Position numbers and translations under genes: made by a program. The notes beneath the pieces are model-generated. The model had not been told where the DNA came from, ran no database searches, and saw only the letters and a list, made by a program, of their open reading frames with translations. Below are positions 10,401-27,485 of a stretch of DNA of 64,000 nt, piece by piece. Within the stretch, counting starts at the first letter, position 1. Every line of letters starts with the position of its first letter. This DNA comes from a virus: IMG/VR virus record IMGVR_UViG_3300040801_004532, positions 1 to 64,000 of that record; one strand, 5' to 3'.

Positions 10401-11310
10401 TTACTGGAACATCTTCTCTAGTTGCAACCGCTTGTGTATCACCCACTTCCCCAATTCTGAATGTATCTGAGTCTTCCGAAAAGATAAATTGATAATTTGG
10501 TTCTGTGCCTCGATCTACTTCCATGCCAGCGGTTCCGGCTGTAACACCAGGACCTGTTTCGCCATCATTCACAACAATAATATTATCTGATGTAGTTACC
10601 TGTTGATTATGAATAACGAAGGTTGTTCCGTCAACAAACAGATCCCCGCTTATGGATACGTCTTGTGAGAAAACTGTTGATTCGCCATCTGTTCGTATAA
10701 CTTCTTCGCCATCAATTACTGTAGTTACATACCCTTCCCCAGTATCAACGACCTCAACATAAGAATCACCTTCTGAAATTTGATCTGTAGAAATATTGCC
10801 AATTTCTGTATCAACGTATGTTTTTACTGCTTGTTCTGTAGGAACTGCATCATCCGAGTCTCCAGATAAAGTTCCATCAGTTGAAAATTCATTGATTGAT
10901 GTTCCGCCCGCCAATGTTAATCCATCTGATGTCCATGTTCCAACTGTAGCTGTATTAATCACAACTTCAACATACGCAGTATTTGTACCGTCATCAACAA
11001 CCTGAACCCTTGAGTCATCTTGTGTAATTCTATCTGCCGCAAGAGAAGCAAATTTATTGTCAACGTATGTTTTTACTGCTTGTTCAGTAGGAACAGCATC
11101 ATCTGAATTTCCTATTAAAGTTCCATCAATTGTAAATTCATTAATAGAAGCACCATTTGCCAATGTTAAACCATCAGCATTAAATGTTGCAACTGTAGCG
11201 TTATCAATTTCGATTAAAGCTCGGCTATTTGATACATCGTCGATAACTCTGACTCTACTATCAGAGTCAAAAATTTGATCGAAAATGTTCCATCTTGGAC
11301 TATAAGCCAT
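7492..11310 (-). CDS. Giant repetitive tail-fibre protein (1272 aa)
   Basis: About 6 copies of the SINEFSTDGTL.GNSD.AVPTE.AVKTYVD motif. Near-identical internal ~55-aa duplication (IYEGDSYVEVVDDGT..GYVTIVTDGVEVAHFDP.SSTQRIGKASAAGR). Confidence 0.6.
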   Translation of the reverse strand: MAYSPRWNIFDQIFDSDSRVRVIDDVSNSRALIEIDNATVATFNADGLTLANGASINEFTIDGTLIGNSDDAVPTEQAVKTYVDNKFASLAADRITQDDSRVQVVDDGTNTAYVEVVINTATVGTWTSDGLTLAGGTSINEFSTDGTLSGDSDDAVPTEQAVKTYVDTEIGNISTDQISEGDSYVEVVDTGEGYVTTVIDGEEVIRTDGESTVFSQDVSISGDLFVDGTTFVIHNQQVTTSDNIIVVNDGETGPGVTAGTAGMEVDRGTEPNYQFIFSEDSDTFRIGEVGDTQAVATREDVPVNLRVPWWNDTEKRFDTAGDAYITIDNVLDEVTMASGDSYVRIGDDGTATGYVEIVTDGVQVAYFDPDASTQRIGKAVGAGRIEVTDAQISMSIATTGVMTIAASGVSLQSGTSVNEFSIDGTLLGNSDNVIPTEKAVKTYVDNATSGISLDKIYEGDSYVEVVDDGTSTGYVTIVTDGVEVAHFDPSSSTQRIGKASAAGRIEVSDTQIQLNIGASNEMAVTSGSIITNGSSIFDAGDYTNNTGSVPYLYRSSTWVGIGAANDLSYYYIDGDGNTYIYATATDAVIDIAADGSITADSNYGGITLTVYDYGYLGTALEGRAYFEANDPEGGDPNIRLGTLGGEIKVDSSVAGDNAKLTYTVGTGFSEQVFMDIDYTYNYFGSTDVGSYLKISTGQDSTASESISLYSGNDKAFEKIAGGITSVFYDPNNYIEIGATDAEVAPEYITMNVAASTVGTFTSEGLTLASGASINEFSTDGTLVGNSDDAVPTEKAVKTYVDQATGQVARDKIYEGDSYVEVVDDGTASGYVTIVTDGVEVAHFDPDSSTQRIGKASAAGRLLVTDEYLYGYIDTRVILDANEERINLGDESEAYVSIDQTSNIITVSESSVVAATFTEFGLTLTTGATVNEFSTDGTLSGNSDSAIPTEKAVKAYVDASNPDILIGQTPNYMFYVDSTGAAATTSFVQSDGVSLFDVGDYTNLSGSNNYIYCDTDSQDWIGLGLAGDETYVYLEGSSGYLYLYATETGANVDILADTNITAYAGSRATFGISGSTYFDADDSVTPSLKIFRGGTTIFENDGVGTFVRADSNTFINVWEGGKSNPDIRFYVDTQAAATLYSTGLYLSTGATVNEFSTDGTLTDNSDSAVPTEQAVKTYVDTSIDTLREVKYVSSDTTAVNGEILLVDTTAGDVNIDLFEGVDAQITIKKITSDSNSVIVSTTPGTIDGLASKSIDAYNSAYTFVSDGSDFYII

Positions 11311-12689: not shown

Positions 12690-14498
12690 TTATATTCTTG
12701 TTTGTTTCGTAAAGTTTACGCCCTTTGGACGCCATTCAACATTTCCCACAATTCCTTCTGTTTCCCCTCCATGCTCATGAGATCCAGCTGGTTCAGTTGT
12801 ATCATAATTATCAGGTGCTCGTTTAATTGTAAACCCTTGGCCGCTTGTTGCTTGTCTAAAATAATTAATATTTGTACTATCTACATTCTCCAATGTAACA
12901 GTCAAATCATGGTCATGGTTTCCAACCAAATCAATAACATGCTCATGGGCGGGGAATGTCCATGTGCTTCCAGTTGTATCCGACCCTCCAACCTGACCTC
13001 CAGCCGCAGAACCTTTGGTAATATATACAACCGTATCATCTACATCTGTATCAAGGGTATAACCAATTACTGCTGTGTCTTTATAGAATAGAATTGTTTC
13101 TCCGGAAGGAATGGCTGGTACTGCGTGGTCTGCATCTGTGTGTGGATTGGCTGAAAAACCAGTATGTCCAGATGAACCAAAATCCAGGTTATATAAAGCT
13201 GAGTGATCTGTGGCGCTTGCTTCAACTTTACTATAACCTGCTGAATTTCCTGACATTATCACATAGTTTAATGTGATAGTATTAGTTGACATTATAATTC
13301 TTAATGTGTTGCCACCATCTCTAACCTCAACTGCTGTTGGAACAATTTGTCTATTGTTTGAGTCATCATACCATTGACAAATATAAGCATTGCTTCCATC
13401 CAATTGTGAAACGTCAATATCCTCGTAATAACCAAGTGCATGAACATTGGATGGGGTAACCTGTCCTTCAACACCAAAACCTATAACTACTTTTGGATCA
13501 AAAATCATATCAATTCTGGTTGTTGAATTTCCAGATGAAAGTGCTCTACCAACAACTTGATAAAACGGTCTCGTTCTTACGTTTGTAACAGTTCCAGGAT
13601 CTGTATTTGAAAGGTATAGTAAATCTCCAGTTGAAACAATAGATCCGGTTTCAACAGGAACTTGTTCTACAAATCCAGAAACCGATGCTCGTCCGCTTCC
13701 CCCAACAGCAAGTCCAATTCCTAGGGTAACAATATCAGCTCCAGTATCAACACCGGTGGCAATGGCGAGTTGTGCTACACGGTTGTTGTCAACATAGCAA
13801 AGAGAACCAACTGTAACTCCAGTTGTATCAATTGTATTAATATCAATCGTAACACCGCCAGCGGTTAATTCTCTCCATTCGCTTAAATGACCAAAGAAAA
13901 ATTTATCGTTGGATGTCTCAAATATAATCCTTCCTTGGTCTCGCTCATCGTCAAATGTTGGTCTTGTTACTGCACCACCCGCATAATATCTTAAGTATTG
14001 TCTTTCGTTGGTTGGTGTATCAGGATCGTAATCATAGAGTGCGTCAATGACGTGGGGGGAAACAATATTTAATTCAACGACCTTTAATAGGATATAATTC
14101 GTACTTAGACTTAATAGATTTCGTTCTGTCGGTTTTAAAATCTTGATGCTTGCTTGTGGAGCAGGTCGTGATTTAGCGTATGCATAGTCTAAAACAACAT
14201 AATGATAACCGCCTTGTTGAGGTAAAACTGTAGATGGGTTAACATAATTCTCGGCTTTTGAAAAATCAACCTGATGTGGGCTAGTTATGTGAATTAAGAC
14301 GTCATCCTTAATTGCATATCCTTCGCTAACCACAACGGTATCAGTTGGAGATGTCGAGTCAATTGTAACTTGTAAAGACCCAACTGTCAGAAGCCCCTCA
14401 ACATCGTGGCTAACCATTTGAGTGATCTTATTAACCACATTGCTGTTATAGGATGCAAACGGATCAATCATCCTCTCTTGACTTGGGATACTCGCCAT
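12690..14498 (-). CDS. structural protein (baseplate/tail candidate)
   Basis: 602-aa ORF downstream of the upstream motif/promoter region. Beta-rich, Thr/Ser/Gly-rich. Confidence 0.4.
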   Translation of the reverse strand: MASIPSQERMIDPFASYNSNVVNKITQMVSHDVEGLLTVGSLQVTIDSTSPTDTVVVSEGYAIKDDVLIHITSPHQVDFSKAENYVNPSTVLPQQGGYHYVVLDYAYAKSRPAPQASIKILKPTERNLLSLSTNYILLKVVELNIVSPHVIDALYDYDPDTPTNERQYLRYYAGGAVTRPTFDDERDQGRIIFETSNDKFFFGHLSEWRELTAGGVTIDINTIDTTGVTVGSLCYVDNNRVAQLAIATGVDTGADIVTLGIGLAVGGSGRASVSGFVEQVPVETGSIVSTGDLLYLSNTDPGTVTNVRTRPFYQVVGRALSSGNSTTRIDMIFDPKVVIGFGVEGQVTPSNVHALGYYEDIDVSQLDGSNAYICQWYDDSNNRQIVPTAVEVRDGGNTLRIIMSTNTITLNYVIMSGNSAGYSKVEASATDHSALYNLDFGSSGHTGFSANPHTDADHAVPAIPSGETILFYKDTAVIGYTLDTDVDDTVVYITKGSAAGGQVGGSDTTGSTWTFPAHEHVIDLVGNHDHDLTVTLENVDSTNINYFRQATSGQGFTIKRAPDNYDTTEPAGSHEHGGETEGIVGNVEWRPKGVNFTKQTRI

Positions 14499-14689: not shown

Positions 14690-14727
14690 GAAAAGGAAAG
14701 GGCGCTTCTACATATAGAAGCGCCCGT
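14690..14727 (-). terminator. Rho-independent terminator for gene 14803..15444
   Basis: Perfect 10-bp stem gggcgcttct/agaagcgccc with a 6-nt loop. T-rich tract on the minus strand. Confidence 0.5.
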
Positions 14728-14802: not shown

Positions 14803-15444
14803 TTACAATCTTTCTAATGCAGAAGAGATATCTTGTATCCTAGGAGGGTTAGCAGTAATCTCAACGATTTTCCATCCATGTTGCTCAAGTTTTAAATTTT
14901 TATTTGGGTCAATATATGCTTCTTTATTATGCCAAAATGTTTTTGGAAATTGTATTACAATCTTCAAAACCGGGTCACAGAAGTCTGTAATGAACTCAAA
15001 CACGATTCTGCCAGCGACCTCCTGCCTTATCATGTAATCTTTTTTTACATTCGTGAAATAGGCTCTAAGAAGGTCAAGTACCTGATCCTTACTATTACAA
15101 CAAATATCATTGGACTTCTTTTCATTAAGCATTTTAGAAAAATCAATTTCTTCTTCAATTTCAGGTTCTACAACTTCAATCTCCTCTCCCATATCTTCAG
15201 GAAGCTCGTCGATCTTTTCAAGTTCTTCTTTTACAAATACTTGTTTTTCCTTCCCGTATTTTGATGAAGCATTAAATTCTTCTGATGAAAGAGGAGCATC
15301 GGGAAATCGTAATTTATATTCAGCATATTTTATTGAGTGGTTAGATGAAAGATGTCTAGGCGAAATCACCAAAAAGGGTTTACCACAAAGCTGACAAATT
15401 ACTCGTCCTTTTTCATCAAAAAATGGGTGCTCATATTCGCTCAT
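14803..15444 (-). CDS. Zinc-finger plus DUF559/Vsr-like PD-(D/E)xK nuclease-domain protein
   Basis: CQLCGKPF…H…NH at the N-terminus. The C-terminus (EFITDF…WH…GWKIVEI) resembles the C-terminus of 29061..29876. Confidence 0.4.
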   Translation of the reverse strand: MSEYEHPFFDEKGRVICQLCGKPFLVISPRHLSSNHSIKYAEYKLRFPDAPLSSEEFNASSKYGKEKQVFVKEELEKIDELPEDMGEEIEVVEPEIEEEIDFSKMLNEKKSNDICCNSKDQVLDLLRAYFTNVKKDYMIRQEVAGRIVFEFITDFCDPVLKIVIQFPKTFWHNKEAYIDPNKNLKLEQHGWKIVEITANPPRIQDISSALERL

Positions 15445-15511
15445 TTCATTTCTCCTTATAAATTAATATTCAAACACAATTTAATATTTGTTCTAAAATG
15501 GAGGCAATCAG

Positions 15512-15985
15512 GTGGACCTACAAAAATTTATTTGGAGGAAAATTTTGAATGTAGAACAAAATCCACTTCTAGTATTAAACATTGATGAGAAGCTCCCATA
15601 TCATTTTATAATAGGAGTAGCGATACATACTATGAGATCTAAGGAACGTGGAAAAATGTTTCTTAAATATGGACCGCTAAGATTTACTAATGATGATATA
15701 AAAAGACTACAAAACGCAGCGTTATTATCAACCGATAAATTATTCAAAACATCACAGCTAGATTGTATCAAAATTGCAAATGTTGAAGAATTAGTTTCAA
15801 CCTTTAGTGCTATGAAATTATCATGTGCTGTAAATCAATGCAGCCTACATCATTTTTCTTCTGAGTATGATATAGAGGATGAATGGTTTGATACGCTTGT
15901 TAAGATGGCGAATACAGATAAGCACTCGGAGGAATTATTGGATAATGCACAAATCAACTATAAACCATTTCACTTCGGACAATGA
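15512..15985 (+). CDS. hypothetical protein
   Basis: 157-aa ORF. Confidence 0.3.
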   Translation: MDLQKFIWRKILNVEQNPLLVLNIDEKLPYHFIIGVAIHTMRSKERGKMFLKYGPLRFTNDDIKRLQNAALLSTDKLFKTSQLDCIKIANVEELVSTFSAMKLSCAVNQCSLHHFSSEYDIEDEWFDTLVKMANTDKHSEELLDNAQINYKPFHFGQ

Positions 15986-16454
15986 AGAATATAGTAATTT
16001 TTATCCTGTCGAAGTACAATTCGAAGGAATAGTATATCCTTCAGTTGAACATGCTTTTGTAGCAGCTAAAAGTCTAAATATAATGTTCAGAAAAGAGATT
16101 TCAGAGATGCCAGCTGATTCTGCTGGACTAGCAAAAAGAAAAGGAAGAAAAGTTAAACTACGCCCAGATTGGGATCTGATTAAGTTAAGAGTCATGAGAG
16201 AATTGTTAGATCAAAAATTTAGGCAACCTAAATTTAAAGAGAAACTATTAGCCAGCGGAGATGCTGAAATAATTGAAGGAAACTATTGGCATGATAACTA
16301 TTGGGGTGATTGCTATTGTAAAAAATGTATAAATATAAAAGGAAAAAATCACCTAGGAAGACTTATTATGAAAATAAGAGAGGAAATCAAAAATGAAGAT
16401 CTTAGTAACCGGAGATATACACAACGAGTTCGGACGATTAAACGAACTAATTAA
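15945..16454 (+). CDS. NADAR-domain protein (YbiA-like N-glycosidase / ADP-ribose processing)
   Basis: Strong alignment to E. coli YbiA: FYS..DEYSNF…EH.F.A.K…NYWGD…GKN.LG..LM..R. RBS ggagga 9 nt upstream of ATG 15945. Confidence 0.7.
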   Translation: MHKSTINHFTSDNEEYSNFYPVEVQFEGIVYPSVEHAFVAAKSLNIMFRKEISEMPADSAGLAKRKGRKVKLRPDWDLIKLRVMRELLDQKFRQPKFKEKLLASGDAEIIEGNYWHDNYWGDCYCKKCINIKGKNHLGRLIMKIREEIKNEDLSNRRYTQRVRTIKRTN

Positions 16455-17070
16455 CAAGAAACAACCTGATATGATAATTTGTTGTGGGGATTTTGGTTAT
16501 TGGCCAAAAATTGAGTCGCTAGAAAAACTATCAAATATCAAACTTCAATCAGCAAAAAAATTGCTATGGTGTGATGGAAATCATGAAGATCATTGGTCTC
16601 TAAAAGAAAGAGAAACAGATGAACTAGCACCAAATATTTTTTATATGCCAAGAGGATCAACATATACTTTAGATGATGGGAGAGTAATCTTATTTATGGG
16701 CGGAGCAGATTCAATTGATAAAGAGTGGAGAAGACTGGGTGTTGATTGGTTTCCAGAAGAAATAATCTCACAAAAAGATTTTGAAAATCTGCCTGATTAT
16801 AATACTAGAATTGATATTATTATTTCACATACATGCCCCGAGTGCTTAGTTGATGAAATGCGAAAAACTTATCCTGAAAAGGGATATGAACCATCTAACA
16901 CAGCATTATCAAGGCTGTTAAATATCTACAAACCAGATTTATGGTTTTTCGGTCACTGGCACAGTTATAGAGAAGGTGTTGTTGAAAACACTAAATGGTA
17001 TGCTCTTTCAGCTCCTGGTTTTGAAACTAGATGGTGGATGTGGTTACCAGAAAGGAGGCGAGTTTTTTAA
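16393..17070 (+). CDS. Calcineurin-like metallophosphoesterase
   Basis: GDIHN…GDFGYW…GNHEDH motifs. Confidence 0.65.
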   Translation: MKILVTGDIHNEFGRLNELINKKQPDMIICCGDFGYWPKIESLEKLSNIKLQSAKKLLWCDGNHEDHWSLKERETDELAPNIFYMPRGSTYTLDDGRVILFMGGADSIDKEWRRLGVDWFPEEIISQKDFENLPDYNTRIDIIISHTCPECLVDEMRKTYPEKGYEPSNTALSRLLNIYKPDLWFFGHWHSYREGVVENTKWYALSAPGFETRWWMWLPERRRVF

Positions 17071-17119
17071 TTTAATTGCTAGTAAATCTTTTTACAACAA
17101 AACCAAAACGGAGGTCTAA

Positions 17120-18886
17120 ATGACGTTAATCATCATGTTCGTGATCTTTCTACTGGCAGCAATTTTTGTTCCGAAATTCATCCCGGACGTCAAATACAAT
17201 CGTGGATACGATGATGTCCAAACAAAAGATATGGGCTGGATTCGTAATACGGTGCGGGGAGCATGCGTCGTTTTGGCAATCCTATGCTTCCTCAGCATGA
17301 GCTGCTTCACCATTGATTCTGACAGCGTTGGCCATATGAAACGGGTATATTTTGGAGAATCCATGCCCTCTGGCCGGATCATTGCAGATCAAAATCAAAA
17401 GGGGCCGCAGGCAAACATTATCGCTCCTGGATTCCATCTGATGCCATTCATTAAGGTTACCCACGATATCGAAGAACTTCCTTTGATTGAAGTTCCCGAA
17501 GGACAGTATGGGTACCTTGTTGCAAAAGATGGTCGTCCCATGCCCGATGGACAATTCATTGCCTCAGCATGGGAGAATGTAAGTGATATGATCAATGCTG
17601 AAAAATTCATGGGCTACCTGGATGAGTCTGAAACCCCGTTGGGAATCAAAGGTCCCCAACTTACCGTTCTCCCGCCTGGCCAATACCGGGTCAATCGCTA
17701 TTTGTTTGATGTTTATGCCGACACCGCAACAGATGTTCCAATCGGTCATGTGGCCGTGGTCAAGTCCAACGTGGGAGATCATTACAATGGTGATCCGATC
17801 CTTCCGACTGGGGTTGACAAAACCACACTTTCCGTCCCGATTGTTCCGAAAGGACATAAAGGGGTTTGGAACGAAGTTCTTCGGCCGGATCGTTATTACC
17901 TAAACAAAAAAGCATATGATATTATTATCATTCCAACACAGGTTCAAACCTGGAAATATCTAGGAGGATACGAACGTCGTTTTATTGATCTAACCCTAAA
18001 TGACGATGGCAAAATTCAACAACATGTACGAAGCCTTCAGGTTGACATTCCAAAAGATGCAGCCGATGGTTCAGTTCTTCTTCGCGTTGAAAACTGGGAT
18101 GTCTTTCAGGATGCAAGAATCCAGGTTCAGGTCACCCCGGAAAATGCTCCATTTGTTGTTGCAGCAGCGGGAGGAATTTCCGCCATCGAAGACAAAATTA
18201 TGACTCCGACATTTAGGAGTGTTCTTCGTAATGAAGCTGCAAAAAATATTGTAGAAACTACAGAGGTAAAGGGTAAAGAAACAAAAATCAGTCGCCCAAG
18301 AAGAGTTCTTGATCTTCTTTATAAAAGAGAGGGCCTGGAAAGTGCAGTCGAGAGCAAGCTGATTCCAGAAGGCGAGAAATATGGTCTGACAGTTATGGAA
18401 GTCAGATTTGGGGATCCGGTTGTTCCTCCCGAACTATTGGTTCCTGGCAAAAGAAAACAGCTCGCCGAATCCTTGATGGCAACCTATAAACAGGAGCAAG
18501 AAGCGCAAATCAAGCGTGTTGAATCTGAACGAGAACGAGCCCGAGCAGATCAGCAACCTGTCCTGATGAAATCTGAGATTGGAATCAAGGTGGCTGACAA
18601 TGAAAAGAAAGCCCGAATCAAACGAGGTGAAGGTGAAGAAGCTTATTTGAAAGCTGTCGCCAACGGGCAAAGGGCTCAGGCTACTGTACTCGGGCAGGAT
18701 CGTGCCTTCGAACTGGCATATGTTGAAAAGATCCTTGAAGCAGCAGTTAAAAATCCGGAGATTATCAAATACCCCGGAACACTCGTCATGGGATCAACTG
18801 GCGGGTTTGAAGGTGCAGCAGCAATTCTCGGTCGAAGCAATCTCAATATGGGACTGGCAACCCCCGTGCCTGCTGTAACCAAGTAG
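17120..18886 (+). CDS. Membrane protein of the SPFH/band-7 (flotillin-like) family (putative)
   Basis: Two N-terminal TM helices. C-terminal E/A/Q/R-rich coiled coil typical of flotillin/YqiK. Lies in the GC-rich island. Confidence 0.4.
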   Translation: MTLIIMFVIFLLAAIFVPKFIPDVKYNRGYDDVQTKDMGWIRNTVRGACVVLAILCFLSMSCFTIDSDSVGHMKRVYFGESMPSGRIIADQNQKGPQANIIAPGFHLMPFIKVTHDIEELPLIEVPEGQYGYLVAKDGRPMPDGQFIASAWENVSDMINAEKFMGYLDESETPLGIKGPQLTVLPPGQYRVNRYLFDVYADTATDVPIGHVAVVKSNVGDHYNGDPILPTGVDKTTLSVPIVPKGHKGVWNEVLRPDRYYLNKKAYDIIIIPTQVQTWKYLGGYERRFIDLTLNDDGKIQQHVRSLQVDIPKDAADGSVLLRVENWDVFQDARIQVQVTPENAPFVVAAAGGISAIEDKIMTPTFRSVLRNEAAKNIVETTEVKGKETKISRPRRVLDLLYKREGLESAVESKLIPEGEKYGLTVMEVRFGDPVVPPELLVPGKRKQLAESLMATYKQEQEAQIKRVESERERARADQQPVLMKSEIGIKVADNEKKARIKRGEGEEAYLKAVANGQRAQATVLGQDRAFELAYVEKILEAAVKNPEIIKYPGTLVMGSTGGFEGAAAILGRSNLNMGLATPVPAVTK

Positions 18887-18937
18887 AATGAAAAGGTGGG
18901 AGGGGAGTATTCCTCCCACCTTTCCCAAGGAGCTAAA

Positions 18938-19324
18938 ATGTCAGATCAAATTTATATTGGAGCATTTGATGGGTCTGCAAAACCAAATCCTGGCGAAATA
19001 ACAATTGGCGGATGGATTGCAGATTCTGATAAAAAAACGCTTATTTCATTTACCGAAAAAATCGGCTATGGTACAAACAATGAAGCAGAATATCTAGCAT
19101 TTATAAGGCTCCTAAAGGAGGCAAAAGGATTAGGGATTAAAAAATTATCAATAAAGGGAGATTCCTCATTAGTTGTAAATCAAATAAACGGCACATGGAA
19201 AATAAAAGAACCAAGGATGAAGGAGTTAAACAATAAGGCCCATTCTATTATGGAAGGAATGGTTATAAAACTAACTCATGTAAAACGAAAATTTAACATC
19301 GTTGCAGACTCACTAACCAGGTAA
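18938..19324 (+). CDS. RNase H (RNase HI-like)
   Basis: FDGS…GG…TNNEAEYLA…GDS.LVV.Q…W pattern. aaggag RBS 7 nt upstream. Confidence 0.6.
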   Translation: MSDQIYIGAFDGSAKPNPGEITIGGWIADSDKKTLISFTEKIGYGTNNEAEYLAFIRLLKEAKGLGIKKLSIKGDSSLVVNQINGTWKIKEPRMKELNNKAHSIMEGMVIKLTHVKRKFNIVADSLTR

Positions 19325-19381
19325 CCTTGGAATACAACAGTTTCCTTGCATGGTTATCAATTTCAAAGAAAGGATTTCAAC

Positions 19382-20236
19382 ATGCGTATCGAATTGCTAA
19401 TTATTGATCCACAGAATGATTTTTGCTGGCCGGGACTTAACCCGATTGAAGTTTCAGATGAAGGCAAACGAGTCCTTCCTTCTGAAGTATTCAAACCGGG
19501 CGCCCTTTATGTTCCGGGGGCAGAAGAAGACATGACCAGGGTGGCTGCCATGGTTCGGCGCCTGAAGGACAAACTGGACGACATCCACATCACCTTGGAC
19601 AGCCATCACTACATCGACATCGCCCATCCTCCGTTTTGGATTTCTTCCAGCGGAAAGAATCCGGATCCGTTTACCATCATCACAAAAGATGATGTGGCGA
19701 ACGGAGTGTGGCGAGCAACCAACCCCCAATTCCAGGATCGTGTGATGGAATATGTCACACAACTGGAAGTGAACGCCCGTTACCCGTTATGCATCTGGCC
19801 GGTCCATTGTGTCATCGGGAGCTGGGGCTATGGGGTATTTCCGGACCTACTCAAAGCCATCTTGGAGTGGGAATCGGATTTTGCCATGGCAGACTATGTA
19901 ACAAAGGGATCGAATCTTTGGACGGAACATTACAGTGCGGTTCAAGCAGATGTCCCGGATCCCGAAGATCCCGACACCCAGCTCAACATGCGCCTCATCG
20001 AAACCCTCCAGGAGGCAGATGAAATCATCCTGGTCGGCGAGGCAAGATCACATTGCCTTGCCAATACGGTCATCGACATCGCAAACAATTTCGGGGAGGA
20101 AAACATCAAAAAGATGGTTCTCCTTGAAGATGGGTCAAGCGATGTCCCCGGCTTTGAAAACCTTGGGGAGGATTTCGTCAAAGAAATGAAGGGCCGAGGC
20201 ATGCGTATTTCGACCACCACGGAATATCTAAAATGA
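19382..20236 (+). CDS. pncA: Nicotinamidase / isochorismatase-family cysteine hydrolase (PncA-like)
   Basis: LLIIDPQNDFC, WPVHCV, VTKG and LVGEARSHCLANTV motifs align with E. coli PncA motifs. Confidence 0.65.
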   Translation: MRIELLIIDPQNDFCWPGLNPIEVSDEGKRVLPSEVFKPGALYVPGAEEDMTRVAAMVRRLKDKLDDIHITLDSHHYIDIAHPPFWISSSGKNPDPFTIITKDDVANGVWRATNPQFQDRVMEYVTQLEVNARYPLCIWPVHCVIGSWGYGVFPDLLKAILEWESDFAMADYVTKGSNLWTEHYSAVQADVPDPEDPDTQLNMRLIETLQEADEIILVGEARSHCLANTVIDIANNFGEENIKKMVLLEDGSSDVPGFENLGEDFVKEMKGRGMRISTTTEYLK

Positions 20237-20466
20237 AAGGGGGCGGGGAGATAGACTTCATCGCTTCCGATTTAGAAGATCTCCACAGAATCAAGTGGAT
20301 AGCAATTCATAACCCTCATCGAGGGTTGCCACTTGATCGCTCCCCCGAACTCACAGAAGACGACCGAGTTATTTTAGATTTTGAATGTAAAGTTATCAAT
20401 TGCTGCAAAAAAGGCAAGATACCAGCTCAAATAACCATCGAAGATGCTAAGCTGATACAGGGGTGA
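20233..20466 (+). CDS. hypothetical protein
   Basis: 77-aa ORF in the GC-rich island. Confidence 0.3.
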   Translation: MKGGGEIDFIASDLEDLHRIKWIAIHNPHRGLPLDRSPELTEDDRVILDFECKVINCCKKGKIPAQITIEDAKLIQG

Positions 20467-20469
20467 CAT

Positions 20470-20721
20470 ATGTACTTTGTTTGTCATTATTGGGATAATG
20501 GAAATGATTTTTGGATCTCGCCATGCAGTAAACCAGAAGACGTAATCAACTATATTGAATCGTTTGAGCTTGATCCCAAGGATTACTATATTATAAAGGG
20601 ACGAATGCTAAAAGGAATTGAAAATACTTCTTTTAACCTGGTAACTTTCAAGGAGAATGAATATGCCAAGACTGATGGCGACAACGGAGGATCAGGTAAT
20701 CAAGATACCGGGTCCGGGTAA
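20470..20721 (+). CDS. hypothetical protein
   Basis: 83-aa ORF; overlaps the next ORF. Confidence 0.25.
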   Translation: MYFVCHYWDNGNDFWISPCSKPEDVINYIESFELDPKDYYIIKGRMLKGIENTSFNLVTFKENEYAKTDGDNGGSGNQDTGSG

Positions 20722-21421
20722 CTTCCAATTTTCGGCGATTCGAATCGAGGATCTCGGAGCAACAGAATACACCCTGGCCACCCTGGTGGTTGATATTTCA
20801 GGAAGTGTAACCACATTTGCCGATGAGCTACTCGACTGTATCAAAACAATCATCAAAGCATGTCAAAAGAATCCGCGAGCAGAAAATATGCTGGTTCGCC
20901 TCCTTCTGTTCAATGAAAAAATTTATGAAATACATGGTTTCAAAAATCTATCAGATATTGATGTAAACAACTATGAGGCTCTTCGCCCAGACGGATTTAC
21001 AGCTCTATATGATGCAACTTATGATGCAATCGGCGCAACCCTGGAATACTCCAAACGATTGGTTGACCAGGATTTCGATTGCAATGGCGCCGTTTATATT
21101 GTGACGGATGGTATGAACAACCGGGGTAAGATGACCCCAAGTGCAATCGCCCAAAAGATCGGCGAAGCGGTTCATAACGAAGAGATTGAATCGCTTATTT
21201 CAATCCTTGTTGGGCTGCATGATCCCAATAGTTCATGGGAACAGGAGGTTCGGGAATCCTTGGAGATGTTCCACGAGAAAGCAAACCTCACGGAATTTCT
21301 GGACATCGGCGAAGCAACACCACAAAAGCTGGCCAAGTTGGCCGGTTGGGTAAGCGAAAGCGTCAGCAGCCAAAGCCAGGCACTCGGCAGCGGCGCTCCA
21401 AGCCAAACCCTCCAGTTCTAA
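20657..21421 (+). CDS. vWA-domain protein with a complete MIDAS motif
   Basis: VVDISGSV…TALYDAT…IVTDGMNN. Start uncertain: several in-frame Met codons. Confidence 0.5.
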   Translation: MNMPRLMATTEDQVIKIPGPGNFQFSAIRIEDLGATEYTLATLVVDISGSVTTFADELLDCIKTIIKACQKNPRAENMLVRLLLFNEKIYEIHGFKNLSDIDVNNYEALRPDGFTALYDATYDAIGATLEYSKRLVDQDFDCNGAVYIVTDGMNNRGKMTPSAIAQKIGEAVHNEEIESLISILVGLHDPNSSWEQEVRESLEMFHEKANLTEFLDIGEATPQKLAKLAGWVSESVSSQSQALGSGAPSQTLQF

Positions 21422-21524
21422 TGTTTAGAATAATGAACATTAAATAGGTTAATGATGTATATAATGAACATTAAACCGAAAACGGGGGGAGGCAACTCCC
21501 CCCATAAATCTTAGGGAGTAGAAA

Positions 21525-21905
21525 ATGAAAAAAAGTCAGTTGATTGAAACGATTTATCGAAGCAAATTGACCAAAACGAACAAGTCGACAAAGGTCAAAA
21601 AGGGCGTTATGGTGGCCCAACATACAGATGGATATACAGTCGGGATCGGTTTCTCCATGTGTCACAGGAGAGATCGATTTGATTATCATCCCGGAACAGG
21701 TCAAAGAACCCCCGGATGGGGAAAAACGGTAGCAGCCGAAAGGGCCGAAAAGTGGAAGGATCGACTATCAATTGAAATTCCCCAAAGCATTGAACCGGAA
21801 ATGAAAGACTTTATCGGTCGGTGCCGTCGTTATTTCAAAGACAAGGTACTTCCGCCATGGGCCGAAATCCTGATTAACCAGGAATGTGAAAACCCAAAAG
21901 AATAA
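21525..21905 (+). CDS. hypothetical protein
   Basis: 126-aa ORF, gggag RBS. Confidence 0.4.
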   Translation: MKKSQLIETIYRSKLTKTNKSTKVKKGVMVAQHTDGYTVGIGFSMCHRRDRFDYHPGTGQRTPGWGKTVAAERAEKWKDRLSIEIPQSIEPEMKDFIGRCRRYFKDKVLPPWAEILINQECENPKE

Positions 21906-21915
21906 AGGAGATGTT

Positions 21916-23031
21916 ATGACCCAGCCCAAAATTGTTGCAAAATCGCTCAAGACCATTCTGGAGGATCCGGGGGTTCAATGTATTTTGGACCGGTCCTGCA
22001 ATCTTTCCGACGAACTAATTAACGAGGTTCAAGGCTGGTGGGGGTATGATCTGTTCAATAGAAAACCCAGCCCTGCATATGATGAATACGGGGTTTTCTC
22101 CGGCACCGACCTTGACCTGGCATGCTTCCTTTATTCCCTTTCGGGACGCGGTGCAGTTATCAACATCCCCACATACAAATCCCACACCCAAACCAAACTT
22201 CGGGAAGACCAAATGGTCACCTCCAAGGCAAATCGCCATGGCGAAGTTCTTGGTGTTGGTGCCAACAAAATTTTCTTTTCCTTCAACGTCACCATTATGG
22301 ATCAGAATGTTGTCGGGGAAGAAAAGGTTGGCGATTTTCGGACCTTCTCATTAACCGACAAACTCGGTGACTGGTATGATGGGTGGCAGCGAATCGAGTT
22401 CGTGCCAACCCTCAAAGAAAATCGGTTTATCACCGAAAACAAACTATGGACGGGAAGCAAGATCATTTTCAAAAATTTCATTCATCCGAATCGGTGGACA
22501 TCCATGTTCGGTCGGCATTACGTGATCACGAAAATGCTGATCGACCGCCTGGAGGATGAATGTAAATTCATTCAGGCCGAAATCAAGCGAATCCAGGCAG
22601 CCGGAATTGAATTTCCAGAGGGCGAAGGCCCCATAAAATATTCATATGATTATGGAAAGGGTGTTCAGAAAAAATTCCCGGCGTTTGAAACAATGATCTT
22701 TATTCCAGATACCGAAATCAAGGAAGATTATGATTTCTATCCCACCGACCAGGAAGGATTGGTCAATGCATACAACCGACGGAAGCGACTCCTCTATGGC
22801 GTCATTCCTTCACTTCGATTCATGACCAGGGCCTCAGAATTTGCCCATTACAAACATCCGGATCGTTTTCCGGCATGGATGCGTGGGACAAAATGGGAGG
22901 AAGATTTTACCATCCCCGGGAAACGAATCAAGTGGCAACGGCTGAAACTATTTCAACCCAAGGTCGGAACCCAATCAATATCAATCCTGAAACGATCGTT
23001 CGAAAAATCGGCGACAGTTTCAGGCGATTAA
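21916..23031 (+). CDS. hypothetical protein
   Basis: About 371-aa ORF, aaggag RBS. The ORF track starts at 21886 (GTG). Confidence 0.4.
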   Translation: MTQPKIVAKSLKTILEDPGVQCILDRSCNLSDELINEVQGWWGYDLFNRKPSPAYDEYGVFSGTDLDLACFLYSLSGRGAVINIPTYKSHTQTKLREDQMVTSKANRHGEVLGVGANKIFFSFNVTIMDQNVVGEEKVGDFRTFSLTDKLGDWYDGWQRIEFVPTLKENRFITENKLWTGSKIIFKNFIHPNRWTSMFGRHYVITKMLIDRLEDECKFIQAEIKRIQAAGIEFPEGEGPIKYSYDYGKGVQKKFPAFETMIFIPDTEIKEDYDFYPTDQEGLVNAYNRRKRLLYGVIPSLRFMTRASEFAHYKHPDRFPAWMRGTKWEEDFTIPGKRIKWQRLKLFQPKVGTQSISILKRSFEKSATVSGD

Positions 23032-23109
23032 TTTGATACTCGTAGGGAATGGGGAATATTATATATTCCCCATTCCCATACTAAACAGGCTTTTAAATAG
23101 GAGGTTGAG

Positions 23110-23325
23110 TTGCTTCCAAAAACAAAGATCGTAAACTATCCAATCAAAGTTCCGTTGAGTGATTATTGTTGGAGCCATGAGCCTCCGCATACTATATGCG
23201 AAAATTTTGACAACGAGGGCGGACATGCCAGATGTATTTTGTTTCGTAGAGAAACAATTCACAGAAATGATAAAGGGTATTTAAAACCAGAAATCTGTAA
23301 GAACCTTAAAACTAGTTGGGAATAA
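23110..23325 (+). CDS. hypothetical protein
   Basis: 71-aa ORF. Confidence 0.25.
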   Translation: MLPKTKIVNYPIKVPLSDYCWSHEPPHTICENFDNEGGHARCILFRRETIHRNDKGYLKPEICKNLKTSWE

Positions 23326-23343
23326 TACTACCAGGAAGGGAAA

Positions 23344-23778
23344 ATGATTAAAAATTTTTTCTGTCTGACTTTAATAATTGCGTCATTATTCATTTTTTCA
23401 TGTGGTCCAACAATTGACGTTAGAATACCTATAAAAGTAGAAAAGCTTCATATAGATTTTGAAGAAGAAACTGTCCATTTAAAATATCATATAAAGAAAA
23501 CTATATTTATTGATAGCGTTGATAATCTAGAAGAAAAACAAATGATTATATTGGAACGTGCAAAAACCGATTTAATTAATGCTGATTTTTCAGTGGTAAT
23601 AATAAGCGTTCCAGGCGGATCTACAGATATAACCTATTTCTGTGGTCCAGTTAAAATTGGTTTCTCAAATCTAGCAATATCAAGAGCCCTAGCATTGAAA
23701 TTATTTTCTCCATCAAAAGATGACCCATCAAAACCAATTATGTCAAATGAATTATCAACCCCAAAAAAACCACTTTGA
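23344..23778 (+). CDS. putative lipoprotein
   Basis: Signal peptide with lipobox-like FIFSCG. Confidence 0.4.
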   Translation: MIKNFFCLTLIIASLFIFSCGPTIDVRIPIKVEKLHIDFEEETVHLKYHIKKTIFIDSVDNLEEKQMIILERAKTDLINADFSVVIISVPGGSTDITYFCGPVKIGFSNLAISRALALKLFSPSKDDPSKPIMSNELSTPKKPL

Positions 23779-23787
23779 GGAATTTAA

Positions 23788-24603
23788 ATGATTGAAATAG
23801 ATACCTTTCTTGAAATAGGAAGTCAACATCGAATGTGTGAGGATTATATCATTCAGGGAAACGATCCCACGCAATATATAATTTTGGCTGATGGTTGTAG
23901 TTCAGCCAACAATACAGAGATGGGCGCAAGAATTTTATGCCATCTTGCAAAACAATATCTTAAATACCGGGGCGAAGATAATCTATATTCTATTGGTTAT
24001 TCAGACCTTGGTAACTGGGTTATCTATAATGCAGAATTAATTGCAAGGCAGATGGGGTTATCATTATCTTCTTTAACTTCAACCTTGATTGTTTCATTTA
24101 TAAGAGATGGAATGGTTAAGGTTTTTATGTACGGAGATGGTTGTATTATAACAACATCCCCCAACCATGATAGTATAGAGATCACTAGAGTTGACTTTGA
24201 GGGGAATGCTCCATATTATTTGGTTTATCGGGTAGATAAAGAAAGAGGACAAATCTATCACGAAAATTGCCCAGAAAAAATTACATCTATAAATTTCTCA
24301 ACCAAAACAGATTTACCATATACCAATCGTTGTGCTTACGATTATCCCAGCGAATTTACATATTTAATGTCCACACATCCATTGATCATGATCGCATCAG
24401 ATGGGCTGTTTTCATTTTTGATGGGTAATGGTTCATCTGATTTAATAGACCCGATGGACCTTTTAAAAGGCGGATTTATTTCTTTTAAAAATACAAAAGG
24501 TTCTTTCCTCCAAAGAAGACTTAACAAATATATGAAACATCTATCAAAAGATGGAATCGCCCATTTTGATGATTTATCAGTAGGAGCATATTTAAAAAAG
24601 TAG
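23788..24603 (+). CDS. PP2C-like Ser/Thr phosphatase (divergent)
   Basis: ILADGCSS…G (DGxGG-like), STLIVSF…YGDGCII, IASDGLFSFL (SDGL motif). Confidence 0.4.
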   Translation: MIEIDTFLEIGSQHRMCEDYIIQGNDPTQYIILADGCSSANNTEMGARILCHLAKQYLKYRGEDNLYSIGYSDLGNWVIYNAELIARQMGLSLSSLTSTLIVSFIRDGMVKVFMYGDGCIITTSPNHDSIEITRVDFEGNAPYYLVYRVDKERGQIYHENCPEKITSINFSTKTDLPYTNRCAYDYPSEFTYLMSTHPLIMIASDGLFSFLMGNGSSDLIDPMDLLKGGFISFKNTKGSFLQRRLNKYMKHLSKDGIAHFDDLSVGAYLKK

Positions 24604-24612
24604 GAGGGAGAA

Positions 24613-24921
24613 ATGACCGCCATTGATATAACACCTATAGCTGCTGACGTGCCAAAACTTCAAAAGAATTGGCCGACCTTTAAAGCAGTTAATGATTGTG
24701 ATCGAGATAAGATTGAACTGGATATGGAAGTAAGTATAAGAGTTAAAGGAGAAACTATAAGAGTTAAAATAGAAGCTATGAATGATTCCTTATTAATAGG
24801 AAAGGTTTTAACAAAAAAGTTTTATTTTGTTCAACCATTTATAGAAGGTGATATGATCCAATTTGAAAAGAAAAACGTCATAGATATTTTTGACATAAAC
24901 AGAACAGGAGTACTTTACTAA
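24613..24921 (+). CDS. hypothetical protein
   Basis: 102-aa ORF. Confidence 0.3.
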   Translation: MTAIDITPIAADVPKLQKNWPTFKAVNDCDRDKIELDMEVSIRVKGETIRVKIEAMNDSLLIGKVLTKKFYFVQPFIEGDMIQFEKKNVIDIFDINRTGVLY

Positions 24922-25109
24922 TGCCCTATTATCATTGTAGAAAATGTCACCACGAATTTGAACGTATTCCATATGAAAAAGAAAATGTTATTTGTGATTG
25001 GTGTGGCGCCGACCGGCCAATGATATTAGAAGAAAAAACTCCGCTTGAAAAAATGGCTGAGAATGCTGATAAATTACTAGATAAATTGATCAAAGAAGGG
25101 AAAAAATAA
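24921..25109 (+). CDS. small zinc-ribbon protein
   Basis: CRKCHH…CDWCG. Confidence 0.3.
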   Translation: MPYYHCRKCHHEFERIPYEKENVICDWCGADRPMILEEKTPLEKMAENADKLLDKLIKEGKK

Positions 25110-26797
25110 TGGAAATATTTGTGGGGGGTAAAAAGGTTACCTTAACACAAAAGAACTTCGTCGCAAAAGGAGGCGAAGGGCAAATATTTCATCGTAGTAA
25201 TGTTGCATATAAAATATATGAAGACCTTACAAAGATGATTCCGCCCGCAAAGATCGGCGAATTGAATCTCCTGGATGACCCATGTATTGTTAGACCCAAG
25301 GATCTTATTATGAATAATAAAAAGCAGCCAGTGGGTTTTACAATGGACTGGGTAGGGGACTCAAATCATCCATTATGTAAATTATTTACAACAAAATTTC
25401 AGCGGGATAATGGAATTATAATTGATCAAATTATAGCTTTAGTTGAAAAGATAAAAGAAGTAACAAATTTCATTCATAACCATAATTGCCTTATAGTAGA
25501 TGGTAATGAACTAAACTATTTAGTCAAGGGAGATTTTGTAACTCCCTTGTTTATTGATGTCAATTCATGGCAAACTCCATCATATCAAGCAACAGCAATA
25601 ATGCCTTCAATTAGAGATTGGTCAACTGATACATTTACACAATTGACTGACTGGTTTTCATTTGCTGTTGTTTCATTTCAACTTTTCGTTGGAATACATC
25701 CATATAAGGGCAAACATCCAAAGTATAGAAAAAATGATTTTGCAAGTCGAGTTAGAGATGGTATCTCAGTATTTAATCCCCAAGTAAACTTGCCTCCAAC
25801 TACAAGGGACTTTTCTTTGATCCCATCTTCATATAAAGATTGGTTTTATCAAATGTTCGAAAACAAAGATAGAAAACCGCCGCCAACTCTACCAGGAGAG
25901 GCAGGAGTTATACAAGTTACAATACAGGTCATTACAAGCACTGATGCTTTTGAGGTAACTCTTATTAAGGATTATGGTGAAGAAATTTTATTTCATAATC
26001 CAGAGTTTGATATAACAAAAACAAAATCAAAAATCTTTATAGGCAAAACCGATTACCGGGTTTCGAAGGGAGTTGAAATATTATTTGTATCGCCACAACA
26101 AATCCCCATACTTGTAAAAATACAAGATGGTATGGCCCAATTTAAATGCCTTCAAGCTGGTTATGTAATGAAGGGAAATAATATTGCCTGTACTGAAATG
26201 ATGATTGTTAATAATACGTTGTATCTAAAAAATGGAATGAAACTGATTGAAATGGACTTTAAAGAAATGTCCCAAAATATCATTCCAATGCCCAAAACAA
26301 CGTGGACAGTCGAACCTCTTTCAAGTCAAATACTAAGCAATGTTATTTATCAAAGTGTCCTTGGAAAAGCCTTCCTCTGTATACCGGAACCTTTGAGCGG
26401 AAAAAGTAGGTTCCATAACATTCGTATCCCCGAGATAGATTCTCATCGAGTAATTGAGGCAAAATATGAAAATCAGGTTTGTTGTCTTATTACTCACACA
26501 GGGAAAGAATATGAACGTGTTATCATTGTATTTGATAAATCTTTTCAGAAATATACATTGCGAATTATTCAGGGGATTGACTACATTCCATTGAACTTTA
26601 CAGTTCTTGATAATGGCGTATGTGTTATGATCCCCGAAGATAATGTTGTTGAGTTATTTCTGAATCGAATGGATAAACAAGAGGTGAAACGGATTGAAGA
26701 TCCACAAATTGATAGTTCCATGAGGGTATTAAAAGATGGAACAAGAATCAAATTCTTCAAAGATAATAGCTTATATACAATGAAGATGAAAAAATAG
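25109..26797 (+). CDS. Atypical protein-kinase-like protein
   Basis: Gly-loop VAKGGEGQIF, Lys motif AYKIY, catalytic-like LIVDGNELNYLV, IDVNSW (DFG-like). About 290-aa C-terminal extension. Confidence 0.35.
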   Translation: MEIFVGGKKVTLTQKNFVAKGGEGQIFHRSNVAYKIYEDLTKMIPPAKIGELNLLDDPCIVRPKDLIMNNKKQPVGFTMDWVGDSNHPLCKLFTTKFQRDNGIIIDQIIALVEKIKEVTNFIHNHNCLIVDGNELNYLVKGDFVTPLFIDVNSWQTPSYQATAIMPSIRDWSTDTFTQLTDWFSFAVVSFQLFVGIHPYKGKHPKYRKNDFASRVRDGISVFNPQVNLPPTTRDFSLIPSSYKDWFYQMFENKDRKPPPTLPGEAGVIQVTIQVITSTDAFEVTLIKDYGEEILFHNPEFDITKTKSKIFIGKTDYRVSKGVEILFVSPQQIPILVKIQDGMAQFKCLQAGYVMKGNNIACTEMMIVNNTLYLKNGMKLIEMDFKEMSQNIIPMPKTTWTVEPLSSQILSNVIYQSVLGKAFLCIPEPLSGKSRFHNIRIPEIDSHRVIEAKYENQVCCLITHTGKEYERVIIVFDKSFQKYTLRIIQGIDYIPLNFTVLDNGVCVMIPEDNVVELFLNRMDKQEVKRIEDPQIDSSMRVLKDGTRIKFFKDNSLYTMKMKK

Positions 26798-27035
26798 GGG
26801 GATCTATGAATGAGGTAACATTAGTAATTTTAGTATTAATAATGATAATAGATTTTACGTTATACTATATAACAAGAAAGATTGATCCAACCCTCAAACC
26901 ATTTTCCTTTCGTTTTTTCGGGTCTGGAATTTACGCCTTTATATCATACCTAAAACGAATTAAAAAGCAATAGCACTATATATATAAATATTTGAAGAAG
27001 GATAATTTTTATCTTCAAACGAAAGGAGGAGATAG

Positions 27036-27485
27036 TTGGAAATCAAAGGATTGAAGGCGACCCAGAAAGAACTAACTTTTATGAAAGGGGGTGAAAGAGT
27101 GAAAAGAGAAGTAAGGTACAGGGGAATCAGCAACGCAGTTCGTCGGGCAATCGCCAGAAGTGAAATAAGCGGCGAAATCAAAATCCAGGATGTACGGGCA
27201 AAACTCGATGCCAGCAAATGCAGCGCCCCGGAAAAAGTGATCGAAAAATCTCTGTCGTATCTCGCCAACAACGGCGAAATCATTGCCGGGAAAAATGGTC
27301 GATTCTTTACCAAGGACAGTTTGAAGTCAGAGTCGACACCGTCTGCTGTCAATAAGGAATCCCGTTCGGGGATGCTTTTGGGAGCAGGAGATTCGGCCCT
27401 GGTGTCCGGCAAGATCACCTCCATGAGCTATGAAGAGGGGAAGGTGATCGCCACGGTTGAGGTTAAGTCGCTGGATTTGGCTTAA
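27036..27485 (+). CDS. hypothetical protein (GC-rich; TTG start with a strong RBS)
   Basis: aaggagga 7 nt upstream of the TTG start. Confidence 0.35.
   Translation: MEIKGLKATQKELTFMKGGERVKREVRYRGISNAVRRAIARSEISGEIKIQDVRAKLDASKCSAPEKVIEKSLSYLANNGEIIAGKNGRFFTKDSLKSESTPSAVNKESRSGMLLGAGDSALVSGKITSMSYEEGKVIATVEVKSLDLA

Follow-up and report, generated by a model that had tools for sequence, protein, structure and literature searches.

What unites the plus-strand genes that stand between the minus-strand structural and replication genes of the virus recorded as IMGVR_UViG_3300040801_004532 in IMG/VR? We analyzed positions 1 to 64,000 of this record (hereafter the window, 64,000 nt in its full length). 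An earlier note, made from the sequence alone, had read positions 15945-23031 as a GC-rich island encoding a NADAR protein, a metallophosphoesterase, an SPFH protein, an RNase H, a PncA-type nicotinamidase, and a vWA protein, a candidate acquired module that would counteract NAD-depleting or ADP-ribosylating immunity. NAD+ depletion figures prominently in bacterial immunity, and the known phage answers rebuild NAD+ via NAMPT or ADP-ribose pyrophosphate (ADPR-PP) routes. We favor, with moderate confidence, a different core: four genes encoding the nicotinamidase-like enzyme ISO296, a TerY-type vWA protein with a metal ion-dependent adhesion site (MIDAS), a PP2C phosphatase, and a Hanks-type kinase, which would form a TerY-P-like phospho-switch coupled to nicotinamide/NAD salvage. 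The genes named in the earlier note are all present, but the last two members of this cassette, linked to the vWA gene, had been overlooked. In the following, L-numbers designate the loci or contigs of relatives, phage or bacterial. The four cassette genes are:

19382-20236, plus strand: ISO296 (or ISO), a nicotinamidase-like amidohydrolase of the isochorismatase superfamily, first cassette gene, recognized by its invariant residues and its alignment to Pnc1.
20675-21421, plus strand: vWA protein of the TerY/YegL type (248 aa), whose MIDAS motif is complete and whose C-terminal tail is Ser-rich.
23788-24603, plus strand: PP2C-type Ser/Thr phosphatase, third cassette member (Pfam PP2C_2, 2.4e-11), with ED, DG, SDG, and DD motifs in the translation and background GC.
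25109-26797, plus strand: 562-aa Hanks-type Ser/Thr protein kinase (KIN or KIN562), fourth cassette member, with conserved catalytic residues and a confirmed kinase fold.

Within the isochorismatase superfamily, ISO296 is divergent; judged by its residues, it is nicotinamidase-like. Its catalytic triad (D9/K175/C225) and metal site (D73/H75/H142), together with W139 and C143 of the WPxHC motif, are invariant among 29 aligned family members, and it aligns to yeast Pnc1 (2h0r), WPVHCV motif included. ISO296 thus shares with the PncA/Pnc1 nicotinamidases the Asp-Lys-Cys triad, the Asp/His/His metal site, and the WPxHC motif. It differs from these enzymes by its length (about 285 aa, of which some 90 residues are an insertion behind the first strand) and by forming a separate family, which comprises 2392 cluster representatives (at least 2392 clusters), is obligately paired with a vWA gene, and has a putative substrate. 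Among the loci examined, nearly all have the ISO gene immediately 5' of the vWA gene. The vWA protein is identical to P0001, named YegL by JGI, a label that we take to denote COG4245, the TerY-type vWA domain. It has 1389 homologs; an exact-protein look-up of P0001 returned no record. Only 10 of 28 family members match Pfam VWA, weakly (best 1.2e-5), and a profile search of PDB sequences with the vWA alignment gave no matches. The MIDAS residues D40, G43, and S44 (DISGS motif), T109, and D145 are nevertheless invariant in 28 homologs, as are five serines of the C-terminal tail (S227, S229, S231, S234, and S243). Both the PncA-type and the vWA assignments of the earlier note, although below the cut-offs of the hidden Markov models (HMMs), are therefore upheld by invariant catalytic, metal, and MIDAS residues.

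In L035, L045, and most IMG/VR loci, nothing lies between the vWA gene and the PP2C gene downstream of it. More generally, PP2C follows vWA in the loci that extend past the vWA gene, two bacterial ISO-vWA pairs (L086 and L092) being the exceptions. The kinase gene is next to the PP2C gene, as in a TerY-P triad, and the kinase ends in an all-beta domain of about 290 aa. No matches were obtained in a profile search of PDB sequences with the kinase alignment, nor any relatives in a single-protein scan of IMG/VR with the kinase. In L037, the kinase is related at the level of the kinase domain only; two candidates were discarded there, a 219-aa ORF (open reading frame) that is not a vWA protein and a 339-aa ORF that is not the PP2C.

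PMC11090510 describes the TerY-P triad as a TerY-like vWA protein, a PP2C, and a Ser/Thr kinase, proposed to act as a phosphorylation-dependent switch. The same source credits its definition to Anantharaman, Iyer, and Aravind (2012) and a defense version, with an OB-fold form of the kinase, to Gao et al. (2020). The cassette has the three protein types in the order vWA, PP2C, kinase, directly adjacent in L035, L045, and many other loci, and its vWA protein, labeled YegL by JGI, has an intact MIDAS motif. It differs from the triad in that the vWA gene invariably comes second, after a nicotinamidase-like gene, a beta-rich C-terminal domain of about 290 aa replaces the zinc ribbon or OB fold of the kinase, and PADLOC TerY-P HMMs give no match. 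Its carriers are jumbo and huge phages, and its bacterial link is to NrtR rather than to Ter genes, McrBC/CoCoNuT systems, or defense islands. In the clade of the window, it has an added partner, p381, a protein without a solved fold relative.

The order and strand of the four genes are conserved in about 45 phage loci, with a GC of 0.24-0.63; they recur in the GenBank huge phages L043-45 (462-595 kb), in 34 IMG/VR loci, and in phage contigs binned into metagenome-assembled genomes (MAGs), a set whose GC ranges from 0.24 to 0.66. Altogether, about 1400-2400 members of the cassette families are present in public data, and the cassette is conserved in jumbo and huge phages over this whole range of GC. 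The neighbor-joining trees of the four cassette proteins are congruent with each other and with the clade defined by the capsid protein. In these trees, the window clusters with L040, L046, L047, L053, and L049, is sister to L040 for the vWA protein, the PP2C, and the kinase, and never groups with GC-rich phages or bacterial copies. A recent replacement from the sampled GC-rich phages or bacterial copies was rejected on these grounds. The congruence of the trees argues for vertical descent, and the cassette has probably, in our judgment, been inherited in this way throughout a broad radiation of jumbo and huge phages.

When species-representative genomes were scanned with the vWA profile, 18 MAG contigs matched; at least 11 carry the label Desulfobacterales, Desulfonema, Desulfococcaceae, or Desulfobacteraceae, and several of the 18 are misbinned phage contigs, some with archaeal labels. 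An NrtR homolog is divergently oriented with respect to ISO-vWA in six of them (L082, L086, L087, L088, L096, and L097), and was identified in L086 by a NUDIX domain plus NrtR_WHD (1.1e-14). Genes for EF-G, PtsP, alanine racemase (Alr), MoaA, LptF/G, and transketolase in the flanks confirm a chromosomal context for L086, L087, and L097. In L087 and L097, the cassette is complete, a PP2C and a 563-aa kinase following ISO-vWA. NrtR represses the pncA/pncB/nadE salvage genes, and the divergent arrangement is that of pncA-pncB operons (PMC6363681). Membership in an NAD-salvage regulon was found for the bacterial ISO homologs only. Together with the invariant catalytic and metal residues, this location beside NrtR on Desulfobacterales chromosomes bears out the NAD theme that the earlier note had attached to the PncA-like gene. 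The bacterial copies form one clade nested inside the phage diversity, a pattern suggesting one transfer from phage to bacterium or else an exchange long ago. This clade and its taxonomy point to Desulfobacterales, which are probably the hosts of the phage, and provide a host lead for an uncultured clade of jumbo phages.

The presence of such chromosomal copies, the match of the gene content to the triad, and the existence of TerY-P-like modules acting as stand-alone defenses (Gao et al. 2020, as cited in PMC11090510) could be taken to mean that vWA-PP2C-kinase is a phage-borne TerY-P anti-phage defense, serving superinfection exclusion or inter-phage competition, with the nicotinamidase-like protein as an accessory or effector. 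We consider this unlikely: the bacterial copies are found among housekeeping genes beside NrtR and not in defense islands, the cassette is inherited vertically and almost universally in a large phage clade, unlike patchy defense islands, PADLOC TerY-P models do not match it, and the kinase has neither a zinc-ribbon nor an OB C-terminus.

Two observations on related contigs can be added. In L058, a 435-kb phage contig with a GC of 0.63, an NrtR homolog with 41% identity to the Desulfococcaceae NrtR lies directly after the cassette kinase gene (13327-13971). The contigs L084, L090, and P0124, labeled as Thermoplasmatales, Promethearchaeota, and Thorarchaeota MAGs, carry the cassette and the p381 of the window's phage clade, L084 and L090 having in addition an RNase H and a homolog of the ORF HE213; all three are apparently phage contigs that were binned wrongly with archaeal MAGs.

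Between the vWA and PP2C genes, the window contains p381 and a smaller ORF, p126. These genes and the repeats and hairpins around them are the following:

21431-21505: repeat spacer plus G-run hairpin (8-10 bp, 21482-21505) between vWA and p126, a candidate operator plus terminator.
21525-21905, plus strand: p126, upstream of p381, an arrangement kept in L040, with 40% identity to a 151-aa ORF of L040.
21916-23031, plus strand: p381 (about 371 aa), without a solved fold relative.
18892-18923: terminator-like hairpin (perfect, 12 bp, G-rich/C-rich, dG -22.7) directly 3' of the SPFH stop, with an equivalent at the same place in L040.
23045-23077: terminator-like hairpin (perfect, 15 bp, dG -31.5) directly 3' of the p381 stop, with equivalents in L040 and L046.

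No Pfam match was found for p381 and no family match for p126. The 411 homologs of p381, the best match being an uncharacterized protein of Bacillus phage SP-15, thus represent a protein family without a solved fold relative. In L036 (10025-11809), a 594-aa protein fuses a p381-type domain to a TerY-type vWA domain that is homologous to the vWA family of the cassette (Pfam VWA 6.6e-8; hhalign 97%, E 8e-11). Because this Rosetta-stone fusion joins them, p381 and the vWA protein are likely to act together, and it seems reasonably probable that p381, preceded by p126, was added as a partner of the vWA protein in the window's clade. The earlier note had regarded the part with the vWA and the 381-aa protein as a possible separate cargo; this does not hold, as the vWA protein is the constant partner of ISO, PP2C, and the kinase, and p381 is tied to it by the fusion. 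A folE2 GTP cyclohydrolase gene adjoins the fusion gene of L036, and folE2 is also found near p381 in L039.

The vWA-p126 spacer contains two exact copies of TAATGAACATTAAA, at 21431-21444 and 21462-21475, 31 bp apart, with the palindromic core TAATGnnCATTA; TAATGAACATTAAA occurs nowhere else in the window, and TAATGNNCATTA has two matches versus 0.27 expected. The corresponding spacer of L040 carries TTAATG...CATTAA palindromes. These repeats are a candidate operator. Perfect hairpins of at least 9 bp occur at only eight sites in the 64 kb, including 7450-7476, 14700-14725, 29902-29939, and 38030-38063, which follow the stops of the capsid gene, a tail-fiber gene, and other minus-strand genes. 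The three hairpins of the GC-rich stretch discussed below have G-rich 5' arms and no T-run on the coding strand, and L040 and L046 have hairpins at equivalent positions. They were rejected as copies of one repeat, as the GGGAGG...CCTCCC motif occurs once in the window. Their positions therefore divide the stretch into three or more terminator-bounded units: SPFH; RNase H-ISO296-p77-p83-vWA; and p126-p381.

By analogy with TerY-P triads, the kinase and the PP2C would set the phosphorylation state of the vWA protein, whose invariant Ser-rich tail is the candidate phospho-acceptor, and p381 may join this switch in the window's clade. The switch would gate or report the nicotinamidase step, from nicotinamide to nicotinate, which is the entry of Preiss-Handler salvage. 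The phage might thereby keep or rebuild the NAD+ consumed during infection by host NADase defenses or by its own NAD-using enzymes, and an action of the cassette against NAD-depleting defenses is plausible. If the coupling is true, it links protein phosphorylation to NAD salvage, constitutes a candidate counter-defense system, and gives a function to the large family of TerY-like vWA proteins.

NARP1 and NARP2 are reportedly phage NAD+ reconstitution pathways, and NAD synthesis genes have been described in jumbo phages (PMC11662467). Like these, the cassette would provide phage enzymes acting on NAD breakdown products, plausibly offsetting NAD+ depletion. It differs from NARP1 and NARP2 in that we found the deamidation step only and no NAMPT, NMNAT, Adps, or Namat in the window, of whose ORFs a part was scanned, and in that deamidation would be coupled to a eukaryote-like kinase/phosphatase/vWA switch absent from the described pathways. 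We found no description of a nicotinamidase combined with vWA-PP2C-kinase in the searchable literature. The element itself is, on balance, best described as a TerY-P-like triad coupled to a nicotinamidase-like enzyme, borne by jumbo phages and NrtR-linked in bacteria. A bolder and distinctly more doubtful proposal is that the cassette and p381 make up an undescribed NAD+-linked sensing and regeneration system. In it, the beta-rich domain of the kinase would detect NAD+ breakdown or a defense signal, and phosphorylation of the vWA protein would turn on nicotinamide recycling. This would be a third, PncA-based phage route against NAD+-depleting immunity, and Desulfobacterales would have domesticated the cassette under NrtR.

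Several results weigh against a phospho-switch coupled to NAD salvage. ISO296 scores below the curated cut-offs (17.3 vs 27 bits for PF00857; 31.9 vs 174 bits for NF008623). PADLOC TerY-P models searched against the vWA protein, the PP2C, and the kinase gave no match at E <= 0.01, and the C-terminus of the kinase is neither a zinc ribbon nor a recognizable OB fold. In L086 and the Thiomargarita contig L092, ISO-vWA is accompanied by neither a PP2C nor a kinase gene, so that the pair can work without the switch. In the window, 2.4 kb (p126, p381, and the ORF p144) with two terminator-like hairpins separate vWA from PP2C, and these two genes are therefore probably not cotranscribed. Neither PncB, NadD, NadE, nor NrtR was found in the window, in which only NrtR was searched for directly and not all ORFs were scanned; NAD rebuilding would therefore depend on host enzymes. 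Finally, the cassette model leaves unaccounted for the gene-specific rise in third-position GC described below.

The source of the window is an uncultured jumbo phage. Proteins identical to those of the window are on record in a 248-kb JGI contig, and the Gp23-type capsid gene (29971-31422, minus strand; Pfam 3e-33), whose product has only about 25% identity to that of any isolate, is common to 30 IMG/VR contigs of up to 312 kb at 63-88% identity. A megablast search of 15500-23500 against GenBank phages found no match. Eleven tRNA genes, reading the codons AGA, UUA, CUA, UUG, ACA, CCA, CAA, UCA, AGY, and AUG, are clustered at 53842-63455. The opposite strand of the genes relative to the flanking operons is confirmed, but the plus-strand block is larger than the earlier note had it: it spans 15512-26797, with minus-strand genes on both sides, those for tail fibers (233-11310) on its left and those for the capsid, portal, DnaB helicase, and DNA polymerase on its right. 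Two minus-strand ORFs with ROS/MucR zinc fingers (14803-15444 and 29061-29876) flank the block on either side. Both have the appearance of homing endonucleases, with homologs that are patchy among relatives, and the second has an additional DUF559/Vsr-like endonuclease domain.

Besides the cassette, p126, and p381, the block contains:

15945-16454, plus strand: NADAR-domain protein (Pfam NADAR, PF08719, 5.3e-22, 79.2 bits vs a cut-off of 35.1; phrog_1017 9e-40; TIGR02464 77.4 bits vs a cut-off of 73.7).
16393-17070, plus strand: calcineurin-type metallophosphoesterase (MPE; Pfam Metallophos 4.5e-20; phrog_1649 1.3e-35).
17120-18886, plus strand: 588-aa membrane SPFH/Band-7 protein (Pfam Band_7, PF01145, 2.1e-7, 31.6 bits vs a cut-off of 23.6).
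18938-19324, plus strand: RNase H (RNH; Pfam RVT_3 2e-18, RNase_H 1e-7), with an aaggag ribosome-binding site before the ATG at 18938.
20233-20721, plus strand: two small ORFs of 77 and 83 aa (p77 and p83) between the ISO296 and vWA genes.

The first four assignments, made in the earlier note, are confirmed by Pfam matches above threshold. The NADAR gene, which is not included in the GC-rich part, keeps its synteny in L033 and L040, and in several phage lineages it is again found no more than about 6 kb from the cassette. The tightest association among the loci examined is that of L048 (9978 onward), where it separates the PP2C gene of the cassette from the kinase gene. NADAR is known as a phage anti-DarT1 activity (PMC11825919). 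Like AdfN, the orphan NADAR anti-DarT1 factor of T4-like phages described in the same study, the NADAR-domain protein of the window stands alone and belongs to a large phage of the myovirus type. Its gene is at background GC and lies outside the conserved cassette. From this comparison, made at the level of the domain, it is most likely a separate, AdfN-type eraser of DNA ADP-ribosylation. A PADLOC scan with NADAR and the phosphoesterase gave only weak matches to candidate systems.

Two hydrophobic N-terminal segments, in keeping with a membrane anchor, are visible in the translation of the SPFH gene. The protein is restricted to the closest relatives, L033 and L040 having the gene and L034 and L035 lacking it. 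Homologs with 35-38% identity stand alone in Vibrio Ackermannviridae phages, where their neighbors show nothing in common. A single-protein scan of IMG/VR with the SPFH protein found no relatives and an exact-protein look-up no record. The place of the RNase H gene upstream of ISO296 is conserved in the window's clade, and its product is most likely a replication enzyme. The p77 and p83 ORFs have no family matches, and their weak homologs were found in L040 only. We lean toward considering NADAR, the metallophosphoesterase, SPFH, and RNase H as separate, variably present neighbors of the cassette. The 144-aa ORF p144 (23344-23778, plus strand), located between the p381 and PP2C genes, has a lipoprotein-like signal (...LFIFSCGP...) and no homolog in any relative; with a GC at third codon positions (GC3) of 0.17, it ranks lowest in the block.

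The compositional shift claimed for 15945-23031 is real, but it starts at about 17100 and is patchy. GC is 0.451 in 17101-23100 versus 0.356 in the rest of the window, rising from the SPFH start (17120) to the hairpin past the 381-aa ORF (23045-23077), which forms the right edge of the GC-rich stretch. NADAR (GC 0.33) and the metallophosphoesterase (GC 0.35) are at background, as is RNase H (GC 0.36) though inside the stretch. The values of GC3 are:

GC-rich genes: SPFH 0.41; ISO296 0.56; p77 0.44; vWA 0.49; p126 0.44; p381 0.51.
Background genes: NADAR 0.24; phosphoesterase 0.24; RNase H 0.29; PP2C 0.28; kinase 0.28.

The GC-rich genes thus have a GC3 of 0.41-0.56 versus 0.15-0.29 in their neighbors, while GC at second positions (GC2) is steady at 0.36-0.37. 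As GC2 is unchanged, the rise is synonymous and amino-acid composition is ruled out as its cause. Fourteen ORFs of the window have a GC3 of at least 0.38, six of them within the stretch.

The earlier note explained this shift by a single horizontally acquired island, in which NADAR, the phosphoesterase, SPFH, RNase H, PncA, and the vWA protein would act as an NAD/ADP-ribose counter-defense against Thoeris, SIR2, DSR, and DarT. The anomaly itself, a codon usage that looks foreign (Arg CGN 82% vs AGA 57%), the proven anti-DarT1 activity of NADAR (PMC11825919), and its recurrence near the cassette, as far as between PP2C and kinase in L048, are in its favor. Furthermore, the site is variable: in the distant relatives L025, L031, and L032, the HE213 homolog lies directly after the capsid gene and the block is absent between them, and in L015/L049 the cassette is 68 kb from the capsid gene. 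This variability in distant relatives indicates that the block moved or was lost over long times, and not that it arrived recently in the window. The closest relatives, L040-42 (capsid 93%) and L033/L046 (capsid 88%), all have the order HE213(-) / p157-NADAR-MPE-SPFH-RNH-ISO-vWA-p381-PP2C-KIN(+), followed by capsid(-). Amino-acid identity to these relatives is the same in the GC-rich genes (59-77%) as in the flanks (44-68%), and the clade defined by the capsid agrees with the gene trees; neither absence from close relatives nor a discordant phylogeny was observed. The earlier note had said that it would be contradicted if relatives carried the same genes at uniform GC in a conserved core and the proteins matched housekeeping phage families; this has largely come true, the genes and their order being conserved. 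In addition, NADAR and the phosphoesterase lie beyond the GC boundary, and neither they nor RNase H are GC-rich; the stretch comprises at least three terminator-bounded units, and no integrase, attachment repeat, or flanking tRNA gene was found at it (tRNA genes being at 53.8-63.5 kb). A single, recently acquired counter-defense island is thus very improbable, and we think it fairly likely that the GC-rich stretch belongs to a long-resident plus-strand accessory block and is not a fresh insertion.

Another possibility is that there is no functional unit at all, the region being a mosaic of unrelated accessory genes in a plastic tail-fiber/head inter-region whose GC differences reflect different donors. 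Its length and content do vary among relatives, with SPFH, NADAR, the phosphoesterase, and p144 being patchy, GC3 shifts gene by gene within a probable operon (RNase H 0.29 vs ISO296 0.56), and further GC3-rich ORFs are scattered over the window. On the other hand, the ISO-vWA-PP2C-kinase order is conserved over GC of 0.24-0.66 and across the phage-bacterium boundary, and the fusion links p381 to vWA. Such conservation would not be expected for unrelated cargo, and we regard the mosaic as a rather unlikely explanation compared with a four-gene cassette coupled to NAD salvage.

The codon usage of the GC-rich genes is host-like, a feature for which the cassette model gives no cause. Arginine is encoded by CGN in 82% of cases, versus AGA in 57% elsewhere in the phage; TTA accounts for 4% of leucine codons versus 36%, and ATC/ATA for 52%/7% of isoleucine codons versus 13%/29%. 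These genes avoid codons served by the phage tRNAs (AGA, TTA, ACA, CCA, CAA, and UCA): the codons of the 11-tRNA cluster, frequent across the bulk of the phage's genes, are strongly underused in the GC-rich ones. Their relative synonymous codon usage (RSCU) correlates with that of Desulfobacterales housekeeping genes (r 0.46) and not with that of the phage's own genes (r 0.09-0.15). In the sister phage L040, the orthologs of the same genes are likewise GC3-rich, with an r of 0.59 to the Desulfobacterales housekeeping genes, and in the independent lineages L056/L079 and L044 sharp GC3 spikes occur at ISO and vWA alone. A one-off transfer with slow amelioration fits poorly, because synonymous sites should be saturated at 60-77% protein identity. 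An explanation by temporal class is weakened, because RNase H has phage-type codons in the same probable operon as ISO296. A distinct codon regime kept despite saturated divergence is a separate puzzle on the codon usage of phage genes.

The highest GC3 of the window (0.60) is that of a lone plus-strand 290-aa ORF (49171-50043) amid the minus-strand replication genes, a moron-like ORF with a DnaJ-type CXXCXGXG zinc-finger domain (Pfam 2.3e-10). Four small ORFs without family matches, at 26960-27424 (minus strand), 28230-28571, 52902-53177, and 59848-60120 (plus strand), have a GC3 of 0.47-0.52. When these five scattered ORFs are pooled, their codon usage is uncorrelated with the rest of the phage and has an r of 0.49 both to the GC-rich stretch and to Desulfobacterales genes.

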